Source: Candidatus Zixiibacteriota bacterium (GTDB lineage Bacteria; Zixibacteria; MSB-5A5; RBG-16-43-9). Taken from it: a DNA stretch of 64,000 nt. The DNA is taken from NCBI GenBank assembly GCA_030692925.1, contig JAUYBY010000023.1, positions 22,612 to 86,611 of the forward strand, given 5' to 3'. Below the pieces are notes generated by a model, which searched no databases, was not told where the DNA came from, and saw only the letters and a program-made list of their open reading frames with translations. Below are positions 4,208 through 23,870 of this stretch, one piece after another. The position numbers and the translations under genes are program-made. How positions within the stretch are numbered: position 1 is the stretch's first letter; the number at the start of each line of letters is the position of its first letter.

Positions 4208-4254
4208 TTGACAAATCCTTGTTCTGCCGATAAAATATGTGAAAGTATTCACAA
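4208..4254 (+). promoter_or_regulatory. Sigma70-like promoter (TTGACA-17-TAAAAT) followed directly by a Rex operator (ATGTGAAAGTATTCACAA)
   Basis: TTGACA at 4208-4213, 17-nt spacer, TAAAAT at 4231-4236. An 18-bp inverted repeat TGTGAA-N6-TTCACA at 4237-4254 matches the Rex box consensus TTGTGAAnnnnTTCACAA. The rex ATG lies 5 nt downstream. Confidence 0.7.
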
Positions 4255-4258
4255 CGCT

Positions 4259-4897
4259 ATGCGAAAAATCTCGGAATCCACAATCCACAGGCTGTCGCTT
4301 TATTACCGCACTCTGGTTAGTCTACAGAGAGAAAGGTATATCACCGTTTCCTCCAGAGAGCTGGCTAAAAGGGATAAGCTCACCCCAGCCCAGGTGAGGA
4401 AAGACCTCTCCTTTTTCGGGAGCTTTGGCACAAGGGGATTAGGATACCCGGTGAACGAGCTTAAAGATAAGATCGCCTCTATTCTGGGATTGAACCGGAC
4501 CTGGAATGTGGCTCTGGTGGGGGTGGGAAACGTGGGTTCAGCTTTGGTCTCCTACAAGGAATTTCCCAGGCAGGGGTTTGTCATAAAGAAAATATTCGAC
4601 AACGACCAGAGGAAAATCGGAAAAAACCACAAGGGGATCCTGGTCTCAGACGTAAGGAATCTGGCTAAAGAACTGAAGGAGGACAGAATTGAGATCGTGG
4701 TCCTGGCTGTTCCGGCTTCTGCCGCCCAGAGCGTGGTGGATGAGGTAGTATCAGCCGGAGTTCATACTATTCTTAACTTCGCTCCGACCAACCTCAAGGT
4801 CCCGGACAACGTAGTTCTGCGCACGGTCAATATGGCAATGGAGTTAGAGCATCTCTCCTTTGCCCTTTCCAACCGGGGGAAAATAAAAGAGCTATAA
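4259..4897 (+). CDS. rex: Redox-sensing transcriptional repressor Rex
   Basis: N-terminal winged-helix region (TIHRLSLYYRTL...) and a CoA-binding/Rossmann domain (ALVGVGNVGSAL...). Start placed at the internal Met because ORF-track start 4085 overlaps the gene's own promoter and operator. Confidence 0.85.
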   Translation: MRKISESTIHRLSLYYRTLVSLQRERYITVSSRELAKRDKLTPAQVRKDLSFFGSFGTRGLGYPVNELKDKIASILGLNRTWNVALVGVGNVGSALVSYKEFPRQGFVIKKIFDNDQRKIGKNHKGILVSDVRNLAKELKEDRIEIVVLAVPASAAQSVVDEVVSAGVHTILNFAPTNLKVPDNVVLRTVNMAMELEHLSFALSNRGKIKEL

Positions 4898-9744: not shown

Positions 9745-12700
9745 CTAGGCTGAACTCGTCATCTCCTGGGCAAGTTTTTTTATGTCGGTGAGGAGATCAA
9801 GCTTTTCTTTTTCGTCAAGGTAGCTTTGTTTTAACTCCGGGTCATCTATATTCTGGCTCAAGGCTTTTATGAGTTTGCCAGCCTTTTCATATTCCTTATA
9901 AGCATTTTCAAGGTCATTTTTCAAAAAGCTGAGTTTTCCTCTGAGGAAATAAATTCTCCAGATAATCTCAAGCCGGTTGAGCCTTAATGCCTTCTCTAAA
10001 GCCACCTCTGAATATTCTAAAGCCTGATTTAGATTCCCTTGTTTAAACTCCTTGCGGAGGAGCATATAATAATATTCGGACTCAATTAAAGGCATACTAT
10101 TCTGATCAATGATCTTTTTAGCATTTTCCAGATAGCTTTCAAGCATCCGGTTCTGGCTTGAATCCAAATAAGCCCAGGCAAGATCTAAACTTAAGCTGAG
10201 CTTATCCTCCAACGAGTTCAGCTTCTCAGCCAGGGCGATCGAATTTTCCAGCAGCTTCAAGGCTTCAGCGGTCTTTTTGTTTTTTCTTAAGAGTATTCCC
10301 TTTAAGCGACCAACTGCTATTTGGGTCCTTTTATCATCTATCGCCCTTGATATCTCCAGAGCTTCTTCCAAAAACCGATTCGCATCTTCTGAACGGTTCA
10401 ACAGAAAGAACAACCTTCCCAGAGAGAGCAGAACTGAAACTTTCAATTCTTTATCCTTTATTTCGTCGGAAATATCTAGAGCTTCTTTCAATTGAGTTAA
10501 TGCACCCTGATAGGAACCAGTTTCCAGGTCTATATTAGCCAGACTTTTTAATAAATAGCCGACCGGCTGCTGGAAGCCTATGTCCCGGGCTATTTCTAAT
10601 CCCCGTCTGGCATAATTTGTAGCTTTCTGGTAATCTCCTAATTTAAAGTAAGATTCGCTAAGATTTACCATATTTATAGATATTTCCTTTTTGTTTTCAG
10701 TCTCCTGGTTCAGCTTTAAAGATTCAAGGTAATATGGGATAGCCAGAGAATAAAATCCTGAGAAATACTCGACCAACCCCAGGTTGTTCAGAGACTGTGC
10801 GATCTTCTCCTTATTCTGTAGCTCTTTTCTTATCTCCAGAGATTCAGTATAATATCTTCTGGCTTCAGAATATTGATGCAAAGAAAGATAAATTGAACCG
10901 ATGTTATTCAAGGTGGAGGCTATATGATACTTATCACCCAGAGATTTTTGTATTTTCAATGCTTCCGCAAATACCTCTAATGCTTTTTGATATTGGGAAT
11001 CGATCCAATAGATATTGCCTAAATTATTCAGGGTGTGTGATACCTCTTTATTGTCCTTTAATTCCTGGAAAATCTTTTTGGCTCTTAATAGAGCATCCAA
11101 TCCTTTAGGGTAATCATGTTTTAACCTAAAAAGATCTCCCAAATCCTTATAGGTCTCAGCGATTAGTCTCTGGTTTTCTGAAAATTCAACTATCTTCAGG
11201 ATCTCCTCATAGTCTTTTTGAGCCTGGTTTAACTCTCCGATACTCTTCAAAAGATCGCCCCTTTGCATCAGAGCCTGAGCAATTTTTTCTGATTTCTCCC
11301 TTTCATCAGAGAGTTTTTCAGCGGCCGCCAAGGCTTTTTCAAGATATTTTAAAGCCTGAGGAAAGTCCAGATCCTTCTGATTTTTGATGGCACAGATAAG
11401 GGAGTAATCATAAGCTTTAAAGTAATCATCGCTGGAGATGAAATGAGAAGCGATCTCTTCGGTCTCGATTTCCTCTCCCCTGGATTTTCGTCCCTCCAGA
11501 AAATATGCCAGTTTACGATGGAGAGCTTCCTTGTCTCCTACGAAGTTCTTGTAGGTTAAAGACTGGAGCGTGGGGGTGGCGAAAGCATATGTCAGGGAGT
11601 TAAGTCTTTTCTGAGCCTGAATCAAAATTCGGTCTTTCAAAAGGATGAAGAGAGATTCGAATGTTTTGTCCTCTTCATATCCTGTCAGGAATTTTATAGA
11701 GTTCAGGTCAAACTCCATACCGATAACTGAAGTTAGATTGAGAAAATTCAAGATTTCCTCAGGATATTTTCTGAGATTCCCCAGGATCGTCTTTTCGATA
11801 GTGTCAGGGATATTGATCCCTTTTAGAAGCTGTTCTTCAAATCTAAAGAAGCTTTTTTCAACATACAGGGCTTTCTTTTCAAACAGATACTTCAAAATTT
11901 CCAAAGCAAAAAGTGGAACCCCGGAGGAATTCTGGTAAATGAAATCAAGCAAAGTATCAGGGACAGTTTTCTGTCCTAACTTCTGAGACAGGAGCTTACC
12001 CAGGTCCTGCATCGTAAGAGAGGGTAATCTCAGAAGGTGGAACTGGTTTGAACCAGTCAGGCAGTTGATCAAAGATTTAAGCTTACCCTTTGGGTCTAAA
12101 TTGGCTTCTTGTAGGGTTCCACATAAGAAGAGCTTAGATTTATCCAGGACTTTAGTCAGTTCCTCCAACAAAACCAGACTTCCTTCTCCCATATGGTGAA
12201 GGTCCTCAAAAGCTAAAACAAAAGGATAAAGATTAGAAGCCTCAAGTATGAAAGAAGAGAGTTTTTCCAGTTCTGAACTGGCCTGACTTTCTTTTTCATA
12301 ACCTTGGTTTAAGAAAGATTTAAAAATCTCTTCATATCTTTCGCCAAATGAGGGATGAAGCTTTTCAAAAAAGGGCCAGATTCGGCTGAAAAGCTCTCTT
12401 ACGGGCTGGAGAGGGTGGGTCTCATCCTTGAGGCAATCTATCTGAACAAAAAGAATCCCTTCAAGCTGGGCTTCCCTTTTTAGGTATTTAAGAAGAGTGG
12501 ATTTACCTATTCCCATCTCTCCCTCGATCAGAAATAACCTTCCTCCCCGGGTAAGTGATTCATCCAGCTCTTTTTTCAGTGCCTCATATTCTTTCTCCCG
12601 GTCGAGGATCTTACCACCGTAGATTCTGTTTAAATAGGAAGTCTTCTCAGACCCCCAGGCTGGAAAAGGAGTAATATCCGAAAGAGCCTCTTTTAGCTCT

Positions 12701-13473
12701 GATATATCCTGAAAGCGATCCTCAGGTTTTTTTTCAAGCAGTTTCAGAACCAGTGAGTCCAGACCCTGCGGCAATTCAGGTCTTAAGACAGACGGAGGAG
12801 GGGCGATTTTCTCCAGATGGTCAGACCTCAAAATCAAAGGATCCTCAGAGGAAAAAGGGACATTTGAGGTCAGAAGCTCAAACAAGATTATCCCCAGAGA
12901 ATAAAGATCTGTCTGCGGGTCGATTTTTTGACCGAGAAAAACCTCTGGAGCCATATATTCAAGTGTCCCTGCAGTGCTGGAAGAAGCTTGAGAGAAGGTT
13001 TTGCGTGCTAATCCGAAGTCCAGGAGTTTTACGGAGAAGATGTTACCGGTTAACTTGAAATTGGAGGGTTTAAGGTCAGCATGCACAAGATCCTGAGAGT
13101 GAAGGTACTCCAGTATGTCGCAGATCTGCCAAACGACCTGGTAAAACCTGTTTAAATCTGGCCGGGCAACTTCTGGAGTGAGCTCTTCTCCCTGCACCAT
13201 CTCCATAGTGTAGAAGGCGCTTTTGTCAAGAGTATACCCAAAATCATAGACCTCCACTATGCCGGGGTGAGACAGCTCTGAGGTCAGCCTGAATTCCTGC
13301 TTGAAATTCTCCAGGCTGTCTTCTTTCTGCTCTTCTTGGGCAGAATGGAGCTTCAGGGCAACAGTTTTTCCCTCCCACAAGTCTATAACCTCTAAGACCT
13401 TTCCCAAGCCACCCTGGCCAATTTCCTTTATGACTTGATAGCGTGGAGTAATGAACTCTTTTTCGGTTGACAT
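9745..13473 (-). CDS. Ser/Thr protein kinase - STAND/AAA NTPase - TPR-repeat protein (1242 aa)
   Basis: Kinase motifs HADLKPSNF, DFGLAR and APE; Walker A GEMGIGKST; about 500 aa of C-terminal TPR repeats. Confidence 0.85.
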   Translation of the reverse strand: MSTEKEFITPRYQVIKEIGQGGLGKVLEVIDLWEGKTVALKLHSAQEEQKEDSLENFKQEFRLTSELSHPGIVEVYDFGYTLDKSAFYTMEMVQGEELTPEVARPDLNRFYQVVWQICDILEYLHSQDLVHADLKPSNFKLTGNIFSVKLLDFGLARKTFSQASSSTAGTLEYMAPEVFLGQKIDPQTDLYSLGIILFELLTSNVPFSSEDPLILRSDHLEKIAPPPSVLRPELPQGLDSLVLKLLEKKPEDRFQDISELKEALSDITPFPAWGSEKTSYLNRIYGGKILDREKEYEALKKELDESLTRGGRLFLIEGEMGIGKSTLLKYLKREAQLEGILFVQIDCLKDETHPLQPVRELFSRIWPFFEKLHPSFGERYEEIFKSFLNQGYEKESQASSELEKLSSFILEASNLYPFVLAFEDLHHMGEGSLVLLEELTKVLDKSKLFLCGTLQEANLDPKGKLKSLINCLTGSNQFHLLRLPSLTMQDLGKLLSQKLGQKTVPDTLLDFIYQNSSGVPLFALEILKYLFEKKALYVEKSFFRFEEQLLKGINIPDTIEKTILGNLRKYPEEILNFLNLTSVIGMEFDLNSIKFLTGYEEDKTFESLFILLKDRILIQAQKRLNSLTYAFATPTLQSLTYKNFVGDKEALHRKLAYFLEGRKSRGEEIETEEIASHFISSDDYFKAYDYSLICAIKNQKDLDFPQALKYLEKALAAAEKLSDEREKSEKIAQALMQRGDLLKSIGELNQAQKDYEEILKIVEFSENQRLIAETYKDLGDLFRLKHDYPKGLDALLRAKKIFQELKDNKEVSHTLNNLGNIYWIDSQYQKALEVFAEALKIQKSLGDKYHIASTLNNIGSIYLSLHQYSEARRYYTESLEIRKELQNKEKIAQSLNNLGLVEYFSGFYSLAIPYYLESLKLNQETENKKEISINMVNLSESYFKLGDYQKATNYARRGLEIARDIGFQQPVGYLLKSLANIDLETGSYQGALTQLKEALDISDEIKDKELKVSVLLSLGRLFFLLNRSEDANRFLEEALEISRAIDDKRTQIAVGRLKGILLRKNKKTAEALKLLENSIALAEKLNSLEDKLSLSLDLAWAYLDSSQNRMLESYLENAKKIIDQNSMPLIESEYYYMLLRKEFKQGNLNQALEYSEVALEKALRLNRLEIIWRIYFLRGKLSFLKNDLENAYKEYEKAGKLIKALSQNIDDPELKQSYLDEKEKLDLLTDIKKLAQEMTSSA

Positions 13474-13552: not shown

Positions 13553-15265
13553 TTAAGAGGAGCTTAAAGGGAAGCTGAGCAGGAAGGAGGTACCTTTTCC
13601 TAACTCGCTTTCCACCTTTATTTCCCCTTTATGGTTTCTTATGATCTTCTGACAGGTCACCAGCCCCAGTCCATGACCCTCTTTCTTGGTGGTGAAATGC
13701 GGCTCAAAGATCTTACTTAAGTTTTCCGCAGGGATCCCTGTCCCGTTATCCTCTATTTTCACCCAGACTTTTTTCTCTTCAGGCCTGTATTCACTGGAGA
13801 TCCAAATCTCCCCTTTTCCGTCTGGCCTTTCCTTTATAGATTCAGCCGCATTGTTAAACAGGTTTAAAAAAACCTGCTGGATTTGACCTGCATCTAATTC
13901 CAGCATAGGTAACTCCGGGTCAAAGTTGGTGTTGAACTTTATCTGGGAGAACTTAGTCTGCGGTTTTAAGGAGAAGAGCAGGTCCTCGATCAGGTTTTTC
14001 AGGTCATATTTCTCCACTTTAGTCTCCAGCCTGGAGAAATCCATCAGCCCATCGGTGAAGCGTTTCATAGTGTTGACGCTTTCCAGGATAGCCCTGGCAT
14101 TGGAGGAGACTTTTTCAAGCTCACCTTTTTTCAAGTGTAAAGGTAAGAGCTCAGCGTTGTTCAGGATTATGGTAAGGTAGTTATTTAACTCATGCCCTAT
14201 GGAAGCTGACATCTCCCCGGCAGCCACCAGTTTCTCAGACTGGATAAGCCTTTTTTCCAGAAGCACCTTATCGGTGATGTCCTCCACTACCAGGATCAAG
14301 CCCATTATTCTGTTCTCCACGTTTTCCAAAGGGCTTACCTTTACAGATAAGACTAATTCTTCATCTTTAAACTTATGAAAAGATTTTGCCTCCTCATAAG
14401 GCTGGCCAGTATATAGCACCTGATAGCAGATCTTTTTCCACTTGTTCTTCTCCTCCTCTGGAACCAAGTCTAAAATGGAGATCTGGTTGAAGGAAAGATC
14501 TGAAAGATCCTCTCTCCAGCCGGCTTTCTTGAAAATCTCCCTGGAAGCCTGGTTGGCTATGGTGATCCAGAGGTTGTTGTCCACCACCAGCAGCCCAATC
14601 GGGGTGCGGCTGACCACGTTTTCGTTGTATATTTTCAGGGCTAAAAGGTTCTCGTATAATTTGGCATTCTCAATGGCAATGGCAGCCTGTCCGGCAAAAA
14701 GCTCAAAAACATAAAGGTCGCTCTGCAAAAATACGTTGTTTTTAGAGGAGTTGTCCAGATACAAAATCCCGATGATCTTCTCCTTACTTTTCAGGGGAAC
14801 GCACATTATCGATTTTAACTTGAGTTCCAGGATGCTTTTTTGTTTGGAGAACCTCTCATCTTTTAAGGCATCGCTGGTATAGATCGATTCGCCAGTTGTT
14901 GCCACCTTATTGGCAATCGACATACTTATCCTGAAGTCCTCTTTGCTCAAAGATTCGTTGGTTATATTATGCGCGGTCTTGAACTGCAGCTCTCCTTTAT
15001 CATCTAAGAGCATCAGGAAACCTCTTTCCGCCCTTAAAAGAGAGACTGCCTTTTTCATCACGGTCTGCAGGATGTCATCCAGCACCAGAGAGGAGTTAAT
15101 CGCCTGACTGACCTCTAAGAGGGCTTCTAAATCGTCATTTTTAAATTTTCCAGTAGTGTTATTTTGTAAACGGGGGTGTGCGGTCTGGACTTTCTGAAAG
15201 AGGCTTTCCATTTCCTCCAAGGCAGTTTTGTCCTTTTTGTTAACCCCTGAATTGTTCATTCCCAT
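13553..15265 (-). CDS. Sensor histidine kinase with GAF and PAS domains
   Basis: GAF region, PAS region, HisKA H-box (SIGHELNNYL) and HATPase_c N/G boxes (NLFNNAAESI, GTGIPAE, GHGLGL). Confidence 0.85.
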   Translation of the reverse strand: MGMNNSGVNKKDKTALEEMESLFQKVQTAHPRLQNNTTGKFKNDDLEALLEVSQAINSSLVLDDILQTVMKKAVSLLRAERGFLMLLDDKGELQFKTAHNITNESLSKEDFRISMSIANKVATTGESIYTSDALKDERFSKQKSILELKLKSIMCVPLKSKEKIIGILYLDNSSKNNVFLQSDLYVFELFAGQAAIAIENAKLYENLLALKIYNENVVSRTPIGLLVVDNNLWITIANQASREIFKKAGWREDLSDLSFNQISILDLVPEEEKNKWKKICYQVLYTGQPYEEAKSFHKFKDEELVLSVKVSPLENVENRIMGLILVVEDITDKVLLEKRLIQSEKLVAAGEMSASIGHELNNYLTIILNNAELLPLHLKKGELEKVSSNARAILESVNTMKRFTDGLMDFSRLETKVEKYDLKNLIEDLLFSLKPQTKFSQIKFNTNFDPELPMLELDAGQIQQVFLNLFNNAAESIKERPDGKGEIWISSEYRPEEKKVWVKIEDNGTGIPAENLSKIFEPHFTTKKEGHGLGLVTCQKIIRNHKGEIKVESELGKGTSFLLSFPLSSS

Positions 15266-15403
15266 CCTCCACAGGAGAAGAGTTTAAAAGATAAAGATTC
15301 ATTTCTTTTTATCGGCAGATTGGGCATTTTTATAATGATAGAATGAAGAGAAAAAAACTGTAGCGTTGCCTCTTTCAGGGAGAGGGAATAAAAACACAAA
15401 AAA

Positions 15404-15710
15404 TGGTAAGTTGTAGTTGCCCAATTTATTGGGCATGTTTTTAGCTCGATAAATCGAGCAACTACATCTGAGGCAATGTAAAGTGGAACAGACATCTTGT
15501 CTGTTCTTTGAAGTCAGATAGGGATGTCGGCCCATCATTAGGGGAGGGTCGTCCTCACGGGAGTGAGGACGCTATAGCTTTGAAGTCTGCCAGATGGGTT
15601 CGGGAATTCCAATTCCCGAACCAACCTCAAAAATCACAAACGGATGGTAAGTTGTAGTTGCCCAATTTATTGGGCATGTTTTTAGCTCGATAAATCGAGC
15701 AACTACCCGT
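15404..15710. repeat. Composite (BIME-like) REP cluster: two 75-bp direct copies of the TGTAGTTG-CCCAAT../GCTCGATAAATCGAGC-AACTACA doublet flanking three other hairpins
   Basis: Doublets at 15412-15466 and 15653-15706; hairpins GTCGTCCTCACgggaGTGAGGACGC and GTTCGGGAATTccAATTCCCGAAC lie between them. Confidence 0.75.
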
Positions 15711-15732: not shown

Positions 15733-16422
15733 CTACGCGGGTCTCCGTGTACTGAAGTAATCTTTCAATGCCTGGCGATGGGACTGAAATGCGATATTTT
15801 GAGGGATGCTTTTCGCAGGGAAAAACTTTACTTCTGAGGCATCATCCCCGGGTAAGGGTTCTCCGCTTACGATTTCTCCCAGATAAACTATGAGGATTGC
15901 ACGGGTGCGCGGGTCATCTGAACCTGAATAGACCCTGAATAAACCGGTCAACTTTATTTCTAAATTGGTCTCTTCTTTTACCTCCCTCACTGCACAATGT
16001 TCTGGAGATTCTCCATATTCTATAAAGCCGGCTGGCAGGCACCAGTCACCTTTATAAGGGTTATATTTTCTTCTGACCAAAACGATTTGACCTTCTTTTT
16101 CGATGATGACTCCTGCAGCAGGAGTTGGATTTCGGTATAAAACAAATCCACACACCGGACAGACCTTTCTCAAATTGTGGTCTATCCTTTTTTTGATTAA
16201 CTCCGCACTACAACGCGGGCAATATCTAAAATCTTCATCTTTTCTCAGATATTTGAAATAAAGATCATCCTCTTGTTCTTCTTCTTTTTTAGAAAACTTA
16301 GCTTTTCTTTTATAGACCTTCCCGCTTTCCTTTACCCGGGTCACAGGGGAAATAGACCAGGTTCTTCTGGTCTTGGGCTTTTTGATGGTCAATTTATCTT
16401 GAGAGGACTTTCTATAACCCAT
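15733..16422 (-). CDS. NUDIX hydrolase with NudC-type zinc ribbon and a very basic N-terminal tail
   Basis: CPRC-x15-CPVC zinc ribbon before the Nudix box GESPEHCAVREVKEETNL; Lys/Arg-rich first 60 aa. Start codon abuts the upstream stop (TAAATG), indicating translational coupling. Confidence 0.7.
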   Translation of the reverse strand: MGYRKSSQDKLTIKKPKTRRTWSISPVTRVKESGKVYKRKAKFSKKEEEQEDDLYFKYLRKDEDFRYCPRCSAELIKKRIDHNLRKVCPVCGFVLYRNPTPAAGVIIEKEGQIVLVRRKYNPYKGDWCLPAGFIEYGESPEHCAVREVKEETNLEIKLTGLFRVYSGSDDPRTRAILIVYLGEIVSGEPLPGDDASEVKFFPAKSIPQNIAFQSHRQALKDYFSTRRPA

Positions 16423-18639
16423 TTATAAAACCTTCAATATCACAATCGTGAAATCATCATACAAAGAGATGCCGTGCGCGAAGTTCTCGACTTCCCCGAC
16501 GATAAGCTCCTTCAGCTCTTCGCAGGAAAGTTTCCTGTTTTCCAAAAGCAGCTCCAAGAGCCGGTCTTCTCCGAACATCTCCTGTTTCTCATTGAAGTTC
16601 TCGGTTAGCCCATCCGAATAAAAGAAGACCAGGTCCTCAGATTCAAAAAGAATTTCCTCCATCTGGTAGGTTGCCTCAGGAAAGGGTCCCAGGATAAGCC
16701 CTCCTGTTTTGAGAAATTCCACCTTTTGGTCTTTGCGAATGACTATGGGATAGTTGTGCCCGGCATTGCAATAGGAAAGTTTTCGGGTATGAGGATTGAA
16801 CTCGCCGTAAAACATCGTTGCGAACCTGCCGTCGGAGACCGAAGAGGAGATGAGCTGATTTATGTTGGAAATAGTTTCAGAAGGCTCGAATTTATTTTTC
16901 ATCATCGCCCTTAAGGAGGCGTGTAAAAGCGATACCATCAAGGCGGCAGGGACACCTTTGCCCGAGGCATCAGCTATGGCAACCCCTAAGGAACCATCAG
17001 ACCTCTCTAAAAAGTCATAATAATCCCCTCCGACCTGATGGGCAGGCTGGGTATAAGCGGAAAGCTCAAAAGCTTTTCCTTTAGGAAAAGCCTTAGGCAA
17101 AAGCCCGAGCTGGATTTGCTTTGCTACCAGAAGCTCCTCCTCTATCTTTTGTTTTTCTAAAGACTCCTGATAGAGCTGGGCATTTTTATAGGCGACAACG
17201 AACTGGTTAGCCAGAACCTTTAAAAGGGTCAAATCCTCATAGGTATATTTTAGACCGGTGATTTTTTTGGTCAGACCGAAAAACCCGATGAACTCCTCAG
17301 AGCTATAAATTGGAACTATGAGAAAAACATCTGAGTCAGACAGGGTTTTAAAAAGGGGAGTATCTTTTTCAAAGCTCAGCTCATCTAAAAAAAATGGCCG
17401 GTCCTTTAATCTAAGCTCCTGGATCAAATGGTCATCTTCCGGGAAGGAAAGGTTTTTATCTTCTGAAAAAAGAGAAAATCTTCCATTTTTTGCATCGCAC
17501 AGGCAGAGGTAAACCTCCTCCACTAACATCTCCTTTTTCAAGGCCTCAAAGATTGTGCGGTTAAGCTCATCCAGATTCAGGATGGAGATTATCTTACGGC
17601 TGAACATCTCCATCATTATGCGGTAATCAGCTTTGTCCTTTAATAATAACCTTTTCACTAACTCATCTATCCATCCCATAATTGGCTGGAAAAGGAATAT
17701 GGCCAATATGAGGTAACCTATCTCTAAGATTGGCACCCTGCGGCCTAAAAGGGTCTGCATCAGATTACTCAACTGAGTAATCAAAAGAAAATAGATACCC
17801 AGAAGAAGGGCAGAGGTCAGGGAATAGACCAGACTCTGTCTTACCAGGGTCCTGATATCCAGAAAGCGATAGCGGATGATTGACCAGGCAATTGAGCCGC
17901 TCCCTATCAGAAGGGCTCCTATGGTTAAAGCATACCTCAGGCTGTCCGGAATCTTCAAGCTGGTCAAGGCAGGCAAGATAAAGGCGACCGCATAAAGTCC
18001 AGCAGCAGATCTAATACCCCAGGTAACCAGTTGAGCCTGAGTTTTCAAGCGGCTCTGAGTCAGTTTTCTGGTTCCCTGGTAAAGGAAGAGAACCGCCAGG
18101 AAAAGATAGGTTAAGTTTATGATCGAAAAAAACTGTAGATGAAACCTGTAGATTACCTCCACCGAAAGAGAAAGGAATTTGAGAACGAAAGTTACCGGTT
18201 GGAGAATAAAACCTCCCAGTCCGGATACATTTTCCAGGGAGGAGAGATTGATGAGATTGCGTGGCTGGTACAGAAATAAAACCAGGAGGAGGCGAAAGAT
18301 ATGAGGCGTGAAAATCAGTATCTTGGCCCGTAGGTGTTTTTTCAAAAAAAGATTTTCCACTGGAAAAACCAGGGAGAAAAGCAGAAGCTGGGGGAAGAAA
18401 AGCTCCCACAAGAAAAAGATATTGGTGTAGAAAACTGAAGTGGTAGATGCCAGCCCGCCAGCTTTAAGAATGGTTCCGAAGGCGGCAAAGATAGGGCCTG
18501 AGCCGGCAAAGAAAAGCATCAGGCTGGTTATCCGGTTTAGCCTGCCCCGGTAATCCTCGGAGAGGATAGTAATCCCTAAAAAGAAAAGGACTATGCCGCA
18601 GACCAGATAGACTGAAGCTACTAAAGTAAGAAGACCCAC
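16423..18639 (-). CDS. Membrane-anchored PP2C (SpoIIE/RsbU-type) phosphatase with GAF-like linker
   Basis: About 8 N-terminal TM helices and a C-terminal PPM domain (HQVGGDYYDF..., GVAIADASGKG..., FYSDGLTE). Confidence 0.8.
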   Translation of the reverse strand: MGLLTLVASVYLVCGIVLFFLGITILSEDYRGRLNRITSLMLFFAGSGPIFAAFGTILKAGGLASTTSVFYTNIFFLWELFFPQLLLFSLVFPVENLFLKKHLRAKILIFTPHIFRLLLVLFLYQPRNLINLSSLENVSGLGGFILQPVTFVLKFLSLSVEVIYRFHLQFFSIINLTYLFLAVLFLYQGTRKLTQSRLKTQAQLVTWGIRSAAGLYAVAFILPALTSLKIPDSLRYALTIGALLIGSGSIAWSIIRYRFLDIRTLVRQSLVYSLTSALLLGIYFLLITQLSNLMQTLLGRRVPILEIGYLILAIFLFQPIMGWIDELVKRLLLKDKADYRIMMEMFSRKIISILNLDELNRTIFEALKKEMLVEEVYLCLCDAKNGRFSLFSEDKNLSFPEDDHLIQELRLKDRPFFLDELSFEKDTPLFKTLSDSDVFLIVPIYSSEEFIGFFGLTKKITGLKYTYEDLTLLKVLANQFVVAYKNAQLYQESLEKQKIEEELLVAKQIQLGLLPKAFPKGKAFELSAYTQPAHQVGGDYYDFLERSDGSLGVAIADASGKGVPAALMVSLLHASLRAMMKNKFEPSETISNINQLISSSVSDGRFATMFYGEFNPHTRKLSYCNAGHNYPIVIRKDQKVEFLKTGGLILGPFPEATYQMEEILFESEDLVFFYSDGLTENFNEKQEMFGEDRLLELLLENRKLSCEELKELIVGEVENFAHGISLYDDFTIVILKVL

Positions 18640-18647
18640 TTTATATC

Positions 18648-19082
18648 TTATTCCTTATTCTTCAAATATTTGGTGAGACGAACTATGGTCCCGCCTTCAG
18701 GCTTGAAGATAAAATCGACTTTGTCCATCAGAGACCGGACGATGAAAATCCCCCTTCCAACTTCTTTCAGGAGGTTTTCTTCAGTTATAGGGCAGGGGAG
18801 AGAGTTAAGGTCAAACCCTTTCCCTTCGTCCTCGACCTCTATGCAGATACAGGACTTATCGCAAATGAGCCGAAGGGTGACTTTTTTTTCGGGATCCTTT
18901 TTGTTTCCGTGCACTATGGCGTTATTGACCGCTTCGGTCACTGAAATCGCCAGATCGGCCAGCTGGTTTTTGTCCAGTTTTAATTTTCTTAATTTGCCCT
19001 CTACGAAATCATCCACTTTAGCTAAATAAAGCTGGGAGCTGGGGATAATTATCTGGTTTTTCCTGCGGATTACCTTAGTCAT
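18648..19082 (-). CDS. RsbW/SpoIIAB-like anti-sigma factor / serine kinase (GHKL ATPase)
   Basis: HATPase_c fold motifs (EAVNNAIVHG, DEGKGF, GRGIFI); 144 aa. Confidence 0.8.
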   Translation of the reverse strand: MTKVIRRKNQIIIPSSQLYLAKVDDFVEGKLRKLKLDKNQLADLAISVTEAVNNAIVHGNKKDPEKKVTLRLICDKSCICIEVEDEGKGFDLNSLPCPITEENLLKEVGRGIFIVRSLMDKVDFIFKPEGGTIVRLTKYLKNKE

Positions 19083-19159
19083 TTTCTTAAATAAAAAAAG
19101 GTAGGTTGATCGACCTACCTTTAGATCTGCATTAAGTTCTTTCCAAAATAAAAGAGAGT

Positions 19160-19498
19160 TTAATTGAAGCTTCCCACTGCCTGATCAACTGATTCAAAGG
19201 TCTCAAACACGGTTATGAGCTTGGTGATGGTTAAGAGGCTCTGGATTTTTTCGGTCACATTAGCCAGTTTCAGCTCTCCGCCATTATTCCGCATGGTGGT
19301 CAGTCCGGAGATCAATATGCCCAGGCCAGTGCTGTTCATCCAATCTACTTTAGCCAGGTCGATTACAACCTTCTTTTTTCCTTGACTTATAAACTCGTGC
19401 AGCTTGTCGTGCAAAAGGGTTGCATCCGGGCCTCCCATGATCTTTCCTTTGGGTTCTAAAATCACTATCCCTTTATCTTCACGCGTAGTCAATTTCAT
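19160..19498 (-). CDS. STAS-domain anti-sigma-factor antagonist (RsbV/SpoIIAA-like)
   Basis: 112 aa with the conserved phosphorylatable MNSTGLG region. Confidence 0.85.
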   Translation of the reverse strand: MKLTTREDKGIVILEPKGKIMGGPDATLLHDKLHEFISQGKKKVVIDLAKVDWMNSTGLGILISGLTTMRNNGGELKLANVTEKIQSLLTITKLITVFETFESVDQAVGSFN

Positions 19499-19553: not shown

Positions 19554-19985
19554 TCATTTAAAGAGTGCCTTGATCTTTCCCCAGGTGGTGAGATTAAGCA
19601 CTCCCATGGTGGTTAAGTTTATATCCTTTACAAAGTTGCCAGCTTTAACCTCGAAAGGCAGAGTAACTCCATACCCCTTGACTTCTAAGGTTATATAGTC
19701 ACCTTGTTCCCATCCATCCTTTTCCGAAGTGGAGGGGTCATCAGCAGGAATTAAGAGAGAATATACTCCGTTTTTAACTAGAGCCTCAGGCTTAGTTGCA
19801 ACCCCTGGGATGGAAGCCATTACCCTGCAATCGTCTGGCACCGGATTTCCTCTGTAGGTTACTTTACCTGTAAGTTGACAAACTGTATTCCCGGATTGCC
19901 CTATAGCCTCAATACTCAAAGCCAGACAGAAGAGTATAAAACAACCTTTCCAGCTTAATCTCAAAATCTTTATTACCCCTCTCAT
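19554..19985 (-). CDS. Secreted hypothetical protein (signal peptide; possible CarboxypepD_reg-like beta-sandwich)
   Basis: N-terminal signal peptide; no confident family assignment. Confidence 0.4.
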   Translation of the reverse strand: MRGVIKILRLSWKGCFILFCLALSIEAIGQSGNTVCQLTGKVTYRGNPVPDDCRVMASIPGVATKPEALVKNGVYSLLIPADDPSTSEKDGWEQGDYITLEVKGYGVTLPFEVKAGNFVKDINLTTMGVLNLTTWGKIKALFK

Positions 19986-20007: not shown

Positions 20008-20035
20008 ATTATAGAAATTATCGAAGGTTTGTCAA
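20008..20035 (-). promoter_or_regulatory. Minus-strand promoter TTGACA-16-TATAAT for the 19985 gene
   Basis: Reverse complement reads cccTTGACAaaccttcgataatttcTATAATaaacagagattagaggacttttATG. Confidence 0.55.
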
Positions 20036-20334: not shown

Positions 20335-21144
20335 TTAAGTTTTTTTGGTAGAAATCCTCTGGTAGAAATTCCAGAGCTTGAAGTAATTATTAGGTCCTAA
20401 AATAGTCTTGAGAAAACTTAGGAAATTGTCCCTTAGTTTTTTTTTCAGATAGAGCTTTTTATGCTGATTCACTATGGAGACAAAATAAGAGAATGAGTCA
20501 CCAAATCGAAAAGAAATTCTCTTAAGCTCAAGAAGGTTAGTATAAATGTCATTCAAACCAAATCTGGAAGTGCAGATTCCTTTGTAGCCAAGCTCCCTGG
20601 CGATCTCTTTTACCTTTGGACTGTGATATCCACCAGGCAGACTCAAAAGATCGATTTTCTTCACGGTGATTTCCTCCAGCATTTTTTTTGATTCCTGAAG
20701 CTCCAGCTTCAATTCATTCTCATTCAGAGTCGACAGAAATTGATGAGTTTTGCCGTGCGTGCCGAACTCCATTCCTTCCTGGCTCATCCTGAGAATCTGA
20801 GATTTACTCAGATGACCGGGTTTCTCAATAAAATCGCTGGTCAAAAAGAAGATTGCTTTGTAGTCGAATTTGTTAAGCAGGGGAAAAGCTATGGTATAAT
20901 CGGTCTGGTTTCCGTCATCGAAGGAGATTATCAAATTCTTTTCCGGGAGAGAGGATTTATTCTTAGACGATTCCAATAACTGGCTCACTGAAATGGTGCT
21001 CCATCCACTGGAATGAAGATACTCTAATTGTTTTGCGAATTCTTCCTCCTTTAGAAGATAAACCTTATCTTCTGGGCTGTACTTTGACAGGTCATCTTCC
21101 TTAGATAAGATTCCGTGATAAAGAAGGATTAGCATTTTGTTCAA
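20335..21144 (-). CDS. Polysaccharide deacetylase (NodB-homology, PgaB/IcaB-like)
   Basis: FDDGNQTDY, THGKTHQFL and LLYHGI motifs; TTG or ATG start. Confidence 0.85.
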   Translation of the reverse strand: MNKMLILLYHGILSKEDDLSKYSPEDKVYLLKEEEFAKQLEYLHSSGWSTISVSQLLESSKNKSSLPEKNLIISFDDGNQTDYTIAFPLLNKFDYKAIFFLTSDFIEKPGHLSKSQILRMSQEGMEFGTHGKTHQFLSTLNENELKLELQESKKMLEEITVKKIDLLSLPGGYHSPKVKEIARELGYKGICTSRFGLNDIYTNLLELKRISFRFGDSFSYFVSIVNQHKKLYLKKKLRDNFLSFLKTILGPNNYFKLWNFYQRISTKKT

Positions 21145-21169
21145 GACTCTCCTCTTTACTAAAACTTTT

Positions 21170-21232
21170 GTGCGTGCCAGATCCCCTGACCTGGCATGCT
21201 TCCGGTCGGGTCAGGGGACCCGACCACCACAT
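21170..21232. repeat. About 65-bp double-hairpin element C (GCCAGATCCCCTGACCTGG...CGGGTCAGGGGACCCGACCACCACA), copy 1
   Basis: A second copy (about 80% identical) is at 46912-46977. Both copies are flanked by diverged duplications of adjacent gene termini. Confidence 0.7.
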
Positions 21233-21322
21233 CAACCTTATCTTCAGAGTTTATCTTTGAAAGATTCTCTTCCCTGGATAAGAGACGGTGATAAAGAAGA
21301 ATCAAGGTTTTGTTCAAATTTT

Positions 21323-22471
21323 TTACCTCTTGGATGGCTCCCAGATTATTTCTCTTTTTCCTGAGATAAATTTAACCCAGGCAAAAAGCAGGGCAAAGTT
21401 GATCAGATAAAAATAAAATATCGACTCGAAATAAGAAAAAATTCCTGCTGATTTTTTGTTATTCAAAAAAAGCCAGTGAATCAGAGCAATCAGAACAGTC
21501 AAAAGCTCAAATAGAAAAGTGAGTCTGAAAATCAGATGAGTGTGCAGCAGAAAAATACTGGTCAGGAACAAAAGCAAGAGCAAGAAAGGGGTAAGCCATC
21601 TCAACAGTTTATGGCTCAAAAGCTCCAGGCTGAAAATACCATACTTAAAGGGATTCAATAAAGAAAGCTCCGAGAAAAAGACCTCCAAGCCTCCTAAGGT
21701 GGTTCTTCGTCTTCTCCGGAACTCCTCTTTGAAATCAGTGACTTTAGTGACAAAGGCAGTTGCCTCAGGCTCTGAGACCACCCTTTTTCTTTTTTTCACA
21801 ACCTGAAGCGGAAGATAAAAATCGTCTATAAGATCGTTCGGTATCTCGTTTACAAGCTCTCTTCTGATGGCATAAAGGCACCCACTCACCCCGGTCAGGT
21901 TTCCGCTTTGACTTTCCAGCCTTCTTAATTTCATCTCCAGGCCAACATAAAGCCCTTCCCCGGATTCAGACTTTTCTGAAAAAGCAGAGATGCTCCGGTC
22001 TTCTCCGCTTACGCAGCCCACATCCGGATCAGCGAAATTTCTGGCTATGTTTCTCAAAGAGTTTTCGCTCAAAAAGGTAGAGGCATCTGTGAAAAAGACC
22101 AGCTCGGTCTGAACATCTTTCAAAGCCAGATTTAAAGCCCTGGTCTTTCCTCCCCTTTTTCCCGGTCTGATAAGTTTGACTCCCTGGTTCACAAATGATT
22201 GTGCGATCTCTTCAGTTCTGTCTGTGGATGAGTCAGAGATGACTATTATCCTTAATTTTTCCTGAGGATAATTAAGCCTGAGGCAATTCTCCAGCTTACC
22301 TCTGATCACCTTCTCACCATTATATACCGGGATAAGAAGAGTAGCTCCAGGAAGGTATTCTCCCTTTTGAACTGGGTTGGATCTGAGAAAAGATATGATT
22401 TTCAGGAGAAGAAAATATCCCGAATAGGTATAAAACAGCAGAAATAGTAAAATGATGAAAAAAATAATCAT
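21323..22471 (-). CDS. Family-2 glycosyltransferase, membrane-integrated (PgaC/NodC-like)
   Basis: N-terminal TM, GT-A motifs (VISDSSTDRT, FFTDAS), C-terminal TM helices with LRW motif. Confidence 0.8.
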   Translation of the reverse strand: MIIFFIILLFLLFYTYSGYFLLLKIISFLRSNPVQKGEYLPGATLLIPVYNGEKVIRGKLENCLRLNYPQEKLRIIVISDSSTDRTEEIAQSFVNQGVKLIRPGKRGGKTRALNLALKDVQTELVFFTDASTFLSENSLRNIARNFADPDVGCVSGEDRSISAFSEKSESGEGLYVGLEMKLRRLESQSGNLTGVSGCLYAIRRELVNEIPNDLIDDFYLPLQVVKKRKRVVSEPEATAFVTKVTDFKEEFRRRRRTTLGGLEVFFSELSLLNPFKYGIFSLELLSHKLLRWLTPFLLLLLFLTSIFLLHTHLIFRLTFLFELLTVLIALIHWLFLNNKKSAGIFSYFESIFYFYLINFALLFAWVKFISGKREIIWEPSKR

Positions 22472-23334: not shown

Positions 23335-23749
23335 CTATCCTGACCAGCCCTGAGATAATGGAATTTATCGGCTCGATAATCGAATCGATCAAATTGCCTG
23401 AAGGATAATAAGTTTCAGTGCAATTGAAATTGACCCGGATGGCGATTTTGTCCCCGGAGTTGTAAGAGCTCATTATCCTCTGCCAGGCAGAAACTGCATC
23501 CGAAAGTCCGGTAAGCTCACACACTCCTCTATCCGCCATCGTGTCCACTAAATTCTGGTTGACATAATCACCATAATAGCCGCTGGCAAAATCCCAGTTG
23601 GTGGCGTTCGGGTTATGAATCTGGACCACCCGGGTCGCGGGTATATTCTTAATCAAGCTTTTTGACTCTCCTTTCAGAGCTTCAGGTAAAAAGATTATCC
23701 CTCCTCCCATGCCTAATCCGATATTTTTGAGAAAATCTCTTCTGCGCAT
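23189..23749 (-). CDS. Hypothetical Tat-signal protein whose 3' end overlaps the GT1 gene
   Basis: MRRRDFLKNIGLG twin-arginine motif; the C-terminal 25 aa look like read-through noise. Confidence 0.4.
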   Translation of the reverse strand: MRRRDFLKNIGLGMGGGIIFLPEALKGESKSLIKNIPATRVVQIHNPNATNWDFASGYYGDYVNQNLVDTMADRGVCELTGLSDAVSAWQRIMSSYNSGDKIAIRVNFNCTETYYPSGNLIDSIIEPINSIISGLVRIGVPAADIWVYDASRTLPNRFTSGYLYADARHSSQPLLYLREVDQEAFL

Positions 23750-23870
23750 ATTTTCCTCCGAATATTCGATTATTTACAATATAAACGGAAAGGGTTAAAA
23801 TCCAAAGAATTTTAATCCCCTTATCTTTTAAACGTAACTTTAGCGAAATTTTATTTGAGCCCCGAAATTA

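Follow-up and report, generated by a model that had tools for sequence, protein, structure and literature searches.

A partner-switching module without a sigma factor gene, associated with a zinc-ribbon Nudix hydrolase and rex in Zixibacteria

A 64-kb stretch of DNA from a Candidatus Zixiibacteriota bacterium, referred to here in its entirety as the window, encodes a STAS protein, a GHKL kinase and a PP2C phosphatase that are not accompanied by a sigma factor gene and that are followed directly by a gene for a Nudix hydrolase. This arrangement raises the question of what such a switch controls, and whether the hydrolase takes part in its output. Three elements of the initial annotation of this locus held up, namely the complete partner switch without a sigma factor, the synteny of the PP2C and Nudix genes and a link to NAD. 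Its comparison of the Nudix protein with NudC and its argument from NadE and NadA genes did not, and tight coupling between PP2C and Nudix genes proved specific to the window's clade.

Organization of the locus and the partner-switch proteins

The cluster lies on the minus strand in the order small secreted protein, STAS protein, RsbW-like GHKL kinase, GAF-SpoIIE/PP2C phosphatase, Nudix hydrolase, two REP copies, GAF-PAS histidine kinase and a giant Ser/Thr kinase-AAA-TPR protein. For the part of this cluster that had been described previously, gene order, strand and coordinates were all exact. The features are:

20008..20035, minus strand: sigma-70-type promoter, TTGACA-16-TATAAT (12/12 consensus matches), upstream of the small secreted-protein gene
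19554..19985, minus strand: small secreted-protein gene, first of the cluster (143 aa, N-terminal hydrophobic signal-like segment)
19160..19498, minus strand: single-domain STAS protein of the anti-sigma-antagonist type (PF01740, 7e-16)
19097..19122, minus strand: terminator-like hairpin in the STAS-kinase gap (10-bp stem, then a T-run; identified by pattern matching alone)
18648..19082, minus strand: RsbW/SpoIIAB-type GHKL serine kinase, HATPase_c_2 (PF13581, 2e-24)
16423..18639, minus strand: membrane SpoIIE-family PP2C phosphatase (PF07228, 5e-52, profile positions 1-191 of 192, plus a weak GAF match)
15733..16422, minus strand: Nudix hydrolase, 229 aa (PF00293, 3e-24; PF14803 Zn_ribbon_Nudix, 26.1 bits against a cut-off of 25.6)
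15403..15706, no strand assigned: REP-like block between the Nudix and histidine-kinase genes (two identical palindromic units and an inner hairpin)
13553..15265, minus strand: cytoplasmic histidine kinase (GAF-PAS-HisKA-HATPase domains)
9745..13473, minus strand: Hanks-type Ser/Thr kinase, STAND-like (Pkinase-AAA_16-TPR domains)
4259..4897, plus strand: rex (Put_DNA-bind_N and CoA_binding domains)
4237..4254, plus strand: Rex operator ATGTGAAAGTATTCACAA, with 1 mismatch to TTGTGAA-N4-TTCACAA

The small secreted protein matched no Pfam or NCBIfam family, and its orthologues, which hold the same cluster position in relatives, share an invariant C-terminus, TWGKIKALF[KR]. The hairpin in the STAS-kinase gap might be an attenuator through which the ratio of STAS protein to kinase is set. 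The REP block was present as described, its two identical palindromes of 63 nt occupying 15403-15465 and 15644-15706. A third, diverged copy is located at 2455-2496; the number of copies expected by chance is 0. An AbiEii gene is present elsewhere in the window.

The STAS protein scores 66.5 bits against TIGR00377 (cut-off 53.45) and has its phosphorylatable residue, Ser56, in the sequence DWMNS56TGLG. The N, G1 and G2 boxes of the RsbW-like kinase are conserved. The PP2C protein, which had been described as having eight transmembrane segments, has about 10 hydrophobic segments by a Kyte-Doolittle scan (residues 1-328), followed by a GAF-like region in the middle and, at the C-terminus, a PP2C domain of the SpoIIE family; an NCBI protein from a candidate division Zixibacteria MAG is 100% identical to it. 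In the SpoIIE phosphatase, too, the N-terminus is polytopic, with about 10 membrane segments. Judged from Ser56, the kinase boxes and the full-length SpoIIE-type PP2C domain, the three proteins have all the parts that a phosphorylation-driven partner switch requires. As the initial annotation had stated, no sigma factor accompanies this set: no sigma-70-family Pfam domain was found in window open reading frames of at least 130 aa, and no sigma factor gene lies within 6-10 kb at the locus in eight annotated relatives.

The module resembles the SpoIIE/SpoIIAA/SpoIIAB and RsbU/RsbV/RsbW modules of Bacillus subtilis in its single-domain STAS protein with a phosphoserine in a DS[ST]GLG-type motif, its GHKL serine kinase and its SpoIIE-family PP2C. 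It differs from them in that no sigma-F or sigma-B gene is nearby and that the kinase falls below both the RsbW and SpoIIAB equivalog cut-offs (65-66 bits versus 135-145). Further differences are the GAF middle domain, an unusually constrained STAS protein (80-86% identity across relatives, compared with about 49-64% for the other cluster genes) and additional conserved partners, which are the small secreted protein, the Nudix hydrolase, rex, the histidine kinase and the Ser/Thr kinase. STAS-type phospho-logic with no adjacent sigma gene is shared with Vibrio SypE/SypA, Bordetella BtrU/V/W, Chlamydia RsbU/V/W, Pseudomonas SiaABC and Rhodobacter RbaV/W/Y. Non-sigma switches direct the STAS protein or the kinase to a different type of target (PMC8256260; see also PMC7647112 and PMC3999984), and STAS proteins that themselves serve as non-sigma outputs are documented (PMC8256260). 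The outputs of the named switches include biofilm formation, type III secretion, c-di-GMP and gene transfer agents. None is reported with a Nudix protein or rex, and a full-text literature search for partner switching together with Nudix returned only two papers, both unrelated.

The Nudix hydrolase and its basic tail

Three parts make up the Nudix protein: residues 1-62 (nt 16237-16422) form a basic tail, residues 66-96 (nt 16135-16227) a C4 zinc ribbon and residues 100-219 (nt 15766-16125) the Nudix fold. Since the Nudix box is intact, with invariant residues G132, E138, R146, E147, E150 and E151, the protein is probably an active hydrolase. The CxxC pairs of the ribbon noted previously are present (C68, C71, C88 and C91), though with a spacing of x16 rather than x15. 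The TAAATG stop/start junction between the PP2C and Nudix genes is real (16425-16420) and has a Shine-Dalgarno-like box, GAAGG, 8 nt upstream. Tight coupling of the two genes holds in the window's clade but not elsewhere, as the spacing of the reading frames in relatives ranges from overlap to 347 nt.

Like NudC, the E. coli NADH pyrophosphatase and NAD-RNA decapping enzyme, the window Nudix has a C4 zinc ribbon immediately before the Nudix fold, and to this extent its earlier description as NudC-like is justified. Identity with NudC was rejected, as the protein lacks the N-terminal domain of NudC and scores 55.5 bits against the NudC equivalog HMM, for which the cut-off is 158. The ribbon matches PF14803 and not the NudC zinc-ribbon model PF09297; PF09296 did not match the protein either. 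None of the aligned homologues contains the SQPWPFPxS motif, which the initial annotation had also failed to see. The closest relative is 3CNG from Nitrosomonas europaea (E = 8e-34, versus 1e-9 for NudC), which has the same PF14803-PF00293 architecture over residues 60-221 but lacks the basic tail. It is also the best structural match, at 32% identity, and NudC chains rank next after 3CNG and 2YYH (Foldseek E about 4e-12, ~20% identity). Because 3CNG and 2YYH are uncharacterised structural-genomics entries, they do not allow a substrate to be assigned.

The Lys/Arg-rich character of the tail was borne out, with 17 Lys or Arg among the first 48 residues. The tail is disordered and contains a strongly conserved linear motif, and it looks like a short linear motif that folds on binding. 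It belongs to an unannotated family of free-standing proteins of ~45 aa and also occurs fused to RuvX/YqgF, a nuclease implicated in 16S rRNA maturation. A search of the tail profile against the PDB gave no match, ribosome-bound ArfA included. Three switch-linked Nudix orthologues (L161, L164 and L175) lack the tail, and free-standing homologues of it are present in phyla and phages with no such switch nearby, which argues that the tail binds a general cellular target.

Conservation of the neighbourhood and its association with rex

The pairing of Nudix and PP2C genes proved to be conserved, with a PP2C gene upstream in 32 of 35 non-redundant tail-bearing Nudix loci that had enough upstream DNA. 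In all 26 of the loci with both flanks available, the PP2C gene, the GAF-PAS histidine kinase gene or both adjoin the Nudix gene, whereas neither is adjacent in 69 of 70 tail-less zinc-ribbon Nudix homologues from other phyla. The Nudix gene adjoins a GAF-domain signalling gene (PP2C upstream and/or histidine kinase downstream) through three different locus rearrangements. In many relatives the histidine kinase gene is directly downstream of the Nudix gene, and the Ser/Thr kinase gene is conserved after it. The sampled loci all belong to one phylum, and the conserved order is partly a matter of shared descent.

A reverse search was seeded with three PP2C orthologues of 43-45% identity (L173, L174 and L175). 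Two of these loci (L173 and L175) have the Nudix, histidine kinase, Ser/Thr kinase and rex genes in one locus. L174 has rex and the partner switch without the Nudix, histidine kinase or Ser/Thr kinase genes, and in this single locus the cluster includes a gene for a Macro (ADP-ribose-binding) domain. Conversely, three Nudix genes (L086, L111 and L115) have no partner switch within 2.6-8 kb of upstream sequence but keep the histidine and Ser/Thr kinase genes.

The window encodes Rex, as previously noted. Its gene is convergent with the cluster, ~5 kb past the Ser/Thr kinase gene, a layout also found in L088, L096 and L173. The rex promoter consists of TTGACA at 4209-4214 and TAAAAT at 4232-4237, and the operator (consensus as quoted in PMC6018154) overlaps its -10 element; overlap of the 18-bp operator with rex's own promoter is likewise seen in the regulon of this NADH/NAD+-responsive repressor. 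An arrangement not reported in the initial annotation is seen in most deep relatives, in which rex immediately precedes the module as the first gene of the cluster; in the remaining lineages it is found within a few kb. Counting partner-switch loci whose upstream sequence extends for 5.5 kb or more, rex has this leading position in 13 of 20, and all 13 have a single perfect TTGTGAA-N4-TTCACAA box, with no second one within 10-20 kb. For most relatives, rex is thus followed in the same orientation by the partner-switch and Nudix genes, but the module in the window's clade has its own promoter, and no Rex box was found in that promoter region. A full-text literature search found neither a partner switch nor this zinc-ribbon Nudix family reported in the Rex regulon.

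Through rex and its perfect operator at the head of the cluster in most deep relatives, the proposal of an NAD-linked output gains much stronger support than it first had. Two NAD_synthase-domain genes are present (26521-27486 and 50513-52246), but NadA was not found and one NadE-like gene is inside a polysaccharide locus, which makes that argument weak. A comparable gene neighbourhood is the mycobacterial RHOCS, which consists of PknG, ribosomal protein L13 and the Nudix hydrolase RenU, is induced by NADH, and maintains redox balance through hydrolysis of NADH, FAD and ADP-ribose by its Nudix component (PMC4401782). The likeness is one of gene neighbourhood, in that a Nudix gene adjoins a TPR-bearing Hanks-type kinase gene, here together with the NADH sensor Rex. 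RHOCS differs in having no partner switch, histidine kinase or rex, and in being linked to the ribosome through L13 and not through a tail on the enzyme.

Possible targets of the switch and roles of the Nudix hydrolase

From gene content and order, the window locus is one copy of a neighbourhood conserved across Zixibacteria that comprises rex, the secreted protein, STAS, kinase, GAF-PP2C, Nudix, histidine kinase and Ser/Thr kinase-AAA-TPR genes. It is possible, though we consider it somewhat unlikely, that the module is a canonical anti-sigma system for a sigma factor encoded at another genomic site, with the Nudix hydrolase a housekeeping passenger on a shared transcript. The switch proteins belong to the same superfamilies as RsbV/RsbW/RsbU and SpoIIAA/SpoIIAB/SpoIIE, the scan for sigma factors in the host covers 64 kb of its genome, tight PP2C-Nudix coupling is not conserved, and L174 keeps the switch without the Nudix gene. 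Set against this are the sigma-free flanks of the eight annotated relatives and the scores of the kinase, far under both equivalog cut-offs. A passenger would also not be expected to remain with the histidine and Ser/Thr kinases where the switch is absent, as the Nudix gene does in three loci.

That the Nudix protein is a NudC-like NAD(H) pyrophosphatase and NAD-RNA decapping enzyme, tethered to RNA or the ribosome by its tail, is improbable. Such a role would fit the zinc ribbon, the rank of NudC among the structural matches, the disordered basic tail with its conserved motif, the occurrence of this motif in small free-standing proteins and a RuvX/YqgF fusion, and the linkage to rex; it is at odds with the missing NudC signatures and low HMM score, the identity of only about 20%, the lack of any PDB match to the tail profile and the three switch-linked orthologues without a tail. 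We give similarly little weight to the Nudix protein being itself the target of the switch, bound by the RsbW-like kinase or the STAS protein, perhaps through the tail, so that the hydrolase is released or inhibited. Nudix is the gene that most constantly adjoins the switch, no sigma gene is present, the tail resembles a motif that folds on binding, and the extreme conservation of the STAS protein suggests that it has several partners, as expected of a hub. However, neither fusions nor covariation nor structures point to such contact, the tail homologues in switch-less phyla and phages argue for a general cellular target, and some lineages have the Nudix gene without the switch. Highly improbable is an anti-phage defence island of STAND NTPases, a kinase and a Nudix effector. 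The PADLOC models PD-T4-6 and mad6 do match the kinase domain and PDC-S07 the Nudix domain, the HEAT repeats of a NACHT-HEAT protein in L091 are matched as well, and the window has its AbiEii gene. All of these PADLOC matches are generic and single-domain, however, the switch proteins match no PADLOC model, and the locus, unlike the variable defence islands, has been conserved vertically throughout the phylum with rex and neighbouring housekeeping genes beside it.

The reading that we favour, tentatively and with a probability of roughly 0.4, is a redox-linked, non-sigma partner switch with the Nudix hydrolase as an integrated nucleotide-hydrolysing arm, for which we infer both target and substrate. 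A cue sensed at the membrane or by the GAF domain would activate the PP2C phosphatase, which would dephosphorylate the phosphorylated STAS protein. Free STAS protein would then capture the RsbW-like kinase or, as with SypA, itself be the output; here, too, its extreme conservation points to several partners. The switch would act on a non-sigma target. As the metabolic arm of the circuit, the Nudix protein would hydrolyse an NAD(H)- or ADP-ribose-type dinucleotide, and could either lower NADH when Rex derepresses the locus or clear a nucleotide ligand of the flanking GAF sensors. In the window's clade, where a strong promoter of its own but no Rex box precedes the module, any control by Rex would be indirect. 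The Macro-domain gene in the cluster of the Nudix-less L174 favours this redox-linked reading. Counting against it are the loci with the Nudix gene and no switch, the presence in L174 of the switch without Nudix, the absent NudC signature, the window promoter without a Rex box and the sampling of a single phylum. The cluster suggests a previously undescribed link in these bacteria between protein-phosphorylation signalling and the turnover of NAD-type nucleotides.

Components of the partner-switching module

The genes recognized by the initial annotation were all recovered on the minus strand in searches of Pfam and NCBIfam, and a gene for a small secreted protein that had been overlooked lies immediately upstream of them. 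Read 5' to 3' on the minus strand, the module and the genes that follow it are:

19554-19985, minus strand: small protein of 143 residues with a signal-like N-terminus
19160-19498, minus strand: STAS protein (PF01740, 7e-16; TIGR00377, 66.5 bits against a cut-off of 53.45)
18648-19082, minus strand: GHKL kinase of the RsbW/SpoIIAB type (PF13581, HATPase_c_2, 2e-24; 86.6 bits against a cut-off of 27.4)
16423-18639, minus strand: PP2C phosphatase of 738 residues with a polytopic N-terminus, a weak GAF match and a SpoIIE-type PP2C domain (PF07228, 5e-52)
15733-16422, minus strand: Nudix protein of 229 residues (PF00293, 3e-24, 86 bits; PF14803, Zn_ribbon_Nudix)
13553-15265, minus strand: GAF-PAS-HisKA-HATPase histidine kinase
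9745-13473, minus strand: Pkinase-AAA_16-TPR Ser/Thr kinase

The residues on which partner switching depends are retained. Ser56 of the STAS protein, the phosphorylatable residue (DWMNSTGLG), is kept in at least 95% of 21 aligned orthologues, and the stretch around it, DWMNSTGLGILIS, is at least 95% conserved in the ortholog alignment. The N box (E..NA..HGN), G1 box (D.G.GF) and G2 box (GRG) of the kinase are conserved in 27 orthologues, but the kinase scores well below the NCBIfam equivalog cut-offs for RsbW and SpoIIAB (TIGR01925, 66 bits against 135; NF003144, 64.8 bits against 145). We read the set as a working phosphorylation switch that is orthologous to neither Bacillus system. The phosphatase, which is identical (100%) to an NCBI protein from a metagenome-assembled genome of candidate division Zixibacteria, matches positions 1-191 of the 192 in the PF07228 profile at 177 bits, and a hydropathy scan predicts about ten membrane segments in its N-terminal portion rather than the eight originally counted.

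The STAS protein is 80-86% identical across lineages in which the kinase, phosphatase and Nudix protein are only 49-64% identical. It probably contacts more partners than one kinase and one phosphatase. The small secreted protein belongs to no known family, and its C-terminus, TWGKIKALF[KR], is invariant even where the phosphatase is only 43-45% identical. A WGxIKxLF[KR] terminus was considered as a sorting signal common to proteins of the window and was rejected, as only the small secreted protein ends in this way.

Absence of a sigma factor gene, which the initial annotation had proposed, is borne out in that no sigma-70-family domain was detected by Pfam in the scanned window ORFs of at least 130 residues, and no sigma gene was found in the Pfam-annotated flanks of relatives. 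STAS proteins that serve as outputs and partner switches that have targets other than sigma factors have been documented (PMC8256260).

Several non-coding elements accompany the genes:

upstream of the small secreted-protein gene, minus strand: perfect promoter match, TTGACA-16-TATAAT
19097-19122, minus strand: terminator-like hairpin (10-bp stem followed by a T-run) within the 77 nt that separate the STAS gene from the kinase gene, the best such hairpin in the region
15403-15465 and 15644-15706: identical 63-nt palindromic REP-like units, with a third, diverged copy at 2455-2496

The hairpin could give an excess of STAS protein over kinase. The two identical units confirm the REP block noted earlier between the Nudix and histidine kinase genes. 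A 137-residue ORF at 25953-26366 has a weak match to IS200-like Y1 transposases (7.5e-7) and is a candidate REP-associated tyrosine transposase. A riboswitch or other known RNA element within the module was discarded because Rfam returned only a tmRNA at 59571-59956 (minus strand, 201 bits, tag peptide ANEYSYALAA), which adjoins a gene for an AbiEii-family nucleotidyltransferase toxin (58605-59486).

Other parts of the window deserve brief mention. Directly upstream of the module is a polysaccharide locus (20335-24806) encoding a deacetylase, GT2 and GT1/GT4 glycosyltransferases and an epimerase/dehydratase. A few kilobases further upstream, a gene annotated as NadE (26521-27486) lies beside an AMP-binding enzyme and is separated from the epimerase/dehydratase gene by a PP-loop-like ORF and the Y1 transposase-like ORF. 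This NadE may amidate a sugar instead of synthesizing NAD. What looks like a compact polyamine pathway of the homospermidine type is encoded at 35273-37831 by three neighbouring genes, whose products are a pyruvoyl-dependent arginine decarboxylase, a member of the deoxyhypusine synthase family and an agmatinase-like protein of the arginase family.

The Nudix hydrolase and its basic tail

The stop codon of the phosphatase gene abuts the start codon of the Nudix gene as TAAATG, as had been seen directly in the sequence, and a GAAGG box is located 8 nt upstream. The Nudix protein belongs to the Zn-ribbon family (PF14803 plus PF00293), in which a four-cysteine ribbon precedes the Nudix fold, though its PF14803 score is marginal (26.1 bits against a cut-off of 25.6). 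The zinc motif is CxxC-x16-CxxC, one residue longer in its spacer than first reported, and its cysteines (C68, C71, C88 and C91) are invariant. G132, E138, R146, E147, E150 and E151 of the Nudix box (GX5EX7REUXEEXGU) are invariant in 77 sequences, and the last glycine of the box is replaced by N153 in the window protein. With the box and its catalytic glutamates in place, the enzyme is predicted to be catalytically competent. Its named homologues are almost all from Zixibacteria.

The initial annotation had described this protein as NudC-like, and this assignment does not hold. Against the NudC equivalog PRK00241 (NCBIfam) it scores 55.5 bits, where the cut-off is 158, in a match limited to the ribbon and one half of the Nudix fold. 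Neither PF09296 (the NUDIX-like N-terminal domain) nor PF09297 (zf-NADH-PPase) is detected at E <= 0.01, and the ribbon matches PF14803. The SQPWPFPxS motif, which the initial annotation also did not see, is absent; the corresponding region reads L.GLFxVYSGxDDPRTxA in 20 of 20 and in 77 of 77 aligned homologues. A profile search of the PDB placed the structural-genomics Nudix structure 3CNG at the top (E = 8e-34, residues 60-221, spanning ribbon and Nudix fold), compared with 1e-9 for NudC, and Foldseek with the AlphaFold model likewise ranked 3CNG first, followed by a second structural-genomics structure, 2YYH, and then NudC at about 20% identity. 3CNG is an uncharacterized structure from Nitrosomonas europaea. 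The family of the enzyme falls among the ADP-ribose and dinucleotide pyrophosphatases, and the substrate is not readable from sequence.

The first 62 residues of the Nudix protein (window 16237-16422) form a basic tail that is predicted to be disordered (pLDDT below 50 despite a 77-sequence alignment). Its motif, R-x2-W-x3-P-x-T-[RK]-[VI]-K-x-S-x-K-x-Y-x-R-K, recurs in all 120 of the close Nudix homologues compared, and divergent tails (RRTWKIKPYTRVH...) also exist among homologues. When a profile of the tail was run against 1.84 billion representative proteins, at least 351 clusters (50% identity) were matched at E <= 0.001. Most of the top 150 matches (about 138) are free-standing proteins of 32-100 residues that carry the same motif, and these relatives (P0122-P0279) are basic proteins of about 45 residues. 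The motif is also found at the N-terminus of RuvX/YqgF nucleases (TIGR00250, 122 bits) and inside phage-like proteins, with a weak match to phrog_2701, a family that has no assigned function. The tail and the small proteins have no Pfam match at E <= 10 and no NCBIfam match at E <= 1, and PDB profile searches at E <= 10 with the tail (A2) and the free-standing family (A5) gave chance matches only. A KGKGSYxRK resemblance suggested an ArfA-like ribosome-rescue motif in the tail, a reading that was set aside as unsupported because the PDB profile searches of the tail and the free-standing family never returned ArfA. In two Omnitrophica-like genomes the free-standing gene lies just 5' of hisG (6001-6141 in locus L168, where it overlaps hisG, and 161-298 in locus L171), and the two genomes share the downstream neighbours, transketolase and FtsH.

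The occurrence of the tail motif apart from any partner switch makes some general cellular component the probable binding partner of the tail; nucleic acid or the ribosome comes to mind first, but that is no more than a guess. Three switch-linked Nudix orthologues (loci L161, L164 and L175) lack the tail, which indicates that it is dispensable for association with the switch and breaks any strict rule that a tail always marks a signalling neighbourhood. The correlation between the tail and such neighbourhoods is strong, but it is not absolute and is confounded by phylogeny.

Conservation of the neighbourhood and the link to rex

With the Nudix alignment as query, 80 loci were collected from a set of species-representative genomes and 80 from metagenomes; loci from exact-protein look-ups were added, and the ORFs of all loci were searched with the window proteins. 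Synteny was counted in 35 non-redundant loci that have a tail-bearing Nudix gene and 1.5 kb or more of sequence upstream of it. An orthologous phosphatase gene is directly upstream of the Nudix gene in 29 of these and 2.8-4.7 kb upstream in three, while in the other three it was not found within the available upstream sequence. Wherever both flanks are available (26 of 26 loci), the Nudix gene adjoins the phosphatase gene, or the GAF-PAS histidine kinase gene followed by that for the Ser/Thr kinase, or both. Tail-less Zn-ribbon Nudix homologues from KSB1, Cytophagia, Chloroflexota, Prevotella, betaproteobacteria, archaea and other groups have neither the phosphatase nor the histidine kinase as a neighbour in 69 of 70 cases.

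Sampling was also done in reverse, starting from phosphatase orthologues that are only 43-45% identical (loci L173, L174 and L175). L175 carries the complete set of rex, small protein, STAS, kinase, phosphatase, Nudix, (Omp85), histidine kinase and Ser/Thr kinase genes. L173 has two STAS genes followed by kinase, phosphatase, Nudix, histidine kinase and Ser/Thr kinase genes, with a convergent rex at the end as in the window. L174, alone among the orthologous loci with rex and the switch, has no Nudix gene, and it contains a gene for a Macro-domain (ADP-ribose-binding) protein at 4139-4645 that, in this one case, may functionally replace the Nudix gene. The Macro-domain gene and a second STAS gene lie just upstream of rex in that locus. 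Given these counts and the reverse sampling, the loss of synteny that the initial annotation had named as evidence against its reading was not observed. The Nudix gene belongs stably to a neighbourhood of eight genes, and through several rearrangements of this neighbourhood it has always kept a GAF-domain signalling gene beside it.

In two separate lineages (about 89% and 60% Nudix identity) the gap between the phosphatase and Nudix genes holds a same-strand gene for a NACHT-HEAT STAND NTPase of 931-968 residues (L091, 2648-5443; L103, 6761-9667), together with a pentapeptide-repeat protein gene in L103. The 3-5 kb insertions of L091, L092 and L103 were considered as mobile elements, an idea that was dropped for L091 and L103 on finding the NTPase genes. 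In L092 the gap at the corresponding position is 3.2 kb.

The initial annotation had linked the module to NAD through Rex, two NadE genes and NadA in the window. Of these, rex and two NAD_synthase-domain genes were found, and NadA was not found among the scanned ORFs. The rex gene and its control region are arranged as follows:

4259-4897, plus strand: rex, convergent with the module and about 5 kb beyond the Ser/Thr kinase gene
4237-4254: putative Rex operator with one mismatch, overlapping the -10 element of the rex promoter (TTGACA-17-TAAAAT); promoter and operator together span 4209-4254

A 583-residue ORF with no Pfam match at E <= 0.01 (7434-9185, plus strand) occupies the interval between the Ser/Thr kinase gene and the rex-adjacent transporter genes.

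Three relatives (L088, L096 and L173) share the convergent layout of the window. Among the switch-bearing loci, 20 have upstream sequence of 5.5 kb or more, and in 13 of them rex instead directly precedes the small secreted-protein gene on the same strand. All 13 of these rex-headed loci carry a single perfect TTGTGAA-N4-TTCACAA immediately before rex, with no other copy within 10-20 kb. This sequence is the consensus of characterized Rex proteins (PMC6018154). The promoter and operator of rex in the window have a textbook layout for autorepression, and the Rex consensus of Firmicutes and Actinobacteria holds in Zixibacteria. The perfect operator and rex at the head of the cluster in most switch-bearing loci lend weight to the NAD direction of the earlier reading. 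The promoter of the module itself in the window was also searched for a Rex operator, and this idea was rejected: with spacers of 6 nt and of the correct 4 nt, nothing better than matches with three mismatches was found, these occurred at chance frequency, and the sole good box is that at rex. Direct control of the module by Rex is thus plausible for most lineages and implausible for that of the window.

A possible circuit and its output

A circuit can be proposed from what is established here: the inventory of parts, the residues that catalyse or accept phosphate, the lack of a nearby sigma gene, the conserved neighbourhood and the Rex operator. An envelope or small-molecule cue would cause the membrane-bound GAF-PP2C phosphatase to dephosphorylate the phosphorylated STAS protein, with possible input from the co-conserved secreted protein. 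Free STAS protein would then sequester the kinase or act itself on a target other than a sigma factor. The Nudix enzyme would be the metabolic arm of the circuit, hydrolysing an NAD(H)- or ADP-ribose-type nucleotide. Of the initial interpretation, this proposal retains the switch without a sigma factor, the conserved gene order and the NAD direction, and it gives up membership of NudC, which scores, domains and motif all contradict.

It could be argued that the switch controls a sigma factor encoded remotely and that the Nudix gene is a passenger. We prefer functional integration of the Nudix enzyme over mere hitch-hiking, because, where the switch is lost, its gene is still found with those for the histidine kinase and the Ser/Thr kinase, and because its immediate neighbour nearly always encodes a GAF-domain sensor. 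Adjacency to GAF sensors would also fit an enzyme that controls how much of a nucleotide ligand is present. Another alternative, in which the Nudix protein is a tethered NudC-like decapping enzyme, is at odds with the missing NudC signatures. A further rival makes the Nudix enzyme itself the direct target of the switch. That the cluster is a defence island is improbable, as PADLOC returned only generic, domain-level matches. Beyond functional integration, one may speculate that the tail family is an RNA or ribosome targeting peptide, and that the locus is a device controlled by Rex and the partner switch which places a dinucleotide or cap hydrolase (acting on NAD, ADP-ribose or similar) on RNA or ribosomes upon redox and envelope signals; we consider this extended scheme unlikely.

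The components are all of known kinds. What is new is the gene combination, its conservation across the phylum, the link to Rex and the membership of the tail in an unannotated small-protein family. A full-text literature search found no report tying partner switching to a Nudix hydrolase, or Zixibacteria to Rex. A documented functional precedent for a redox circuit built from a kinase and a Nudix enzyme is the mycobacterial RHOCS system (PknG, L13 and the Nudix hydrolase RenU), in which PknG expression is induced by NADH, RenU hydrolyses NADH, FAD and ADP-ribose, and NADH hydrolysis is stimulated by phosphorylated L13 (PMC4401782). As in RHOCS, a Nudix gene is found in the neighbourhood of a Hanks kinase with TPR repeats, a likeness in gene arrangement.

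The locus suggests pairs that can be tested for interaction: the RsbW-like kinase or the STAS protein with the Nudix enzyme, and the Nudix enzyme with the GAF sensors. As a by-product, the analysis brought to light small basic proteins of an unannotated family, which two different enzymes that process nucleotides or nucleic acids have acquired as a tail. Sigma-less partner switches are common in genomes and their outputs are mostly uncharacterized. The eight-gene context conserved across the phylum points to one area of output, the turnover of NAD(H)- or ADP-ribose-type nucleotides under the NADH sensor Rex, and the echo of RHOCS hints that redox control by a kinase together with a Nudix enzyme may be more general.
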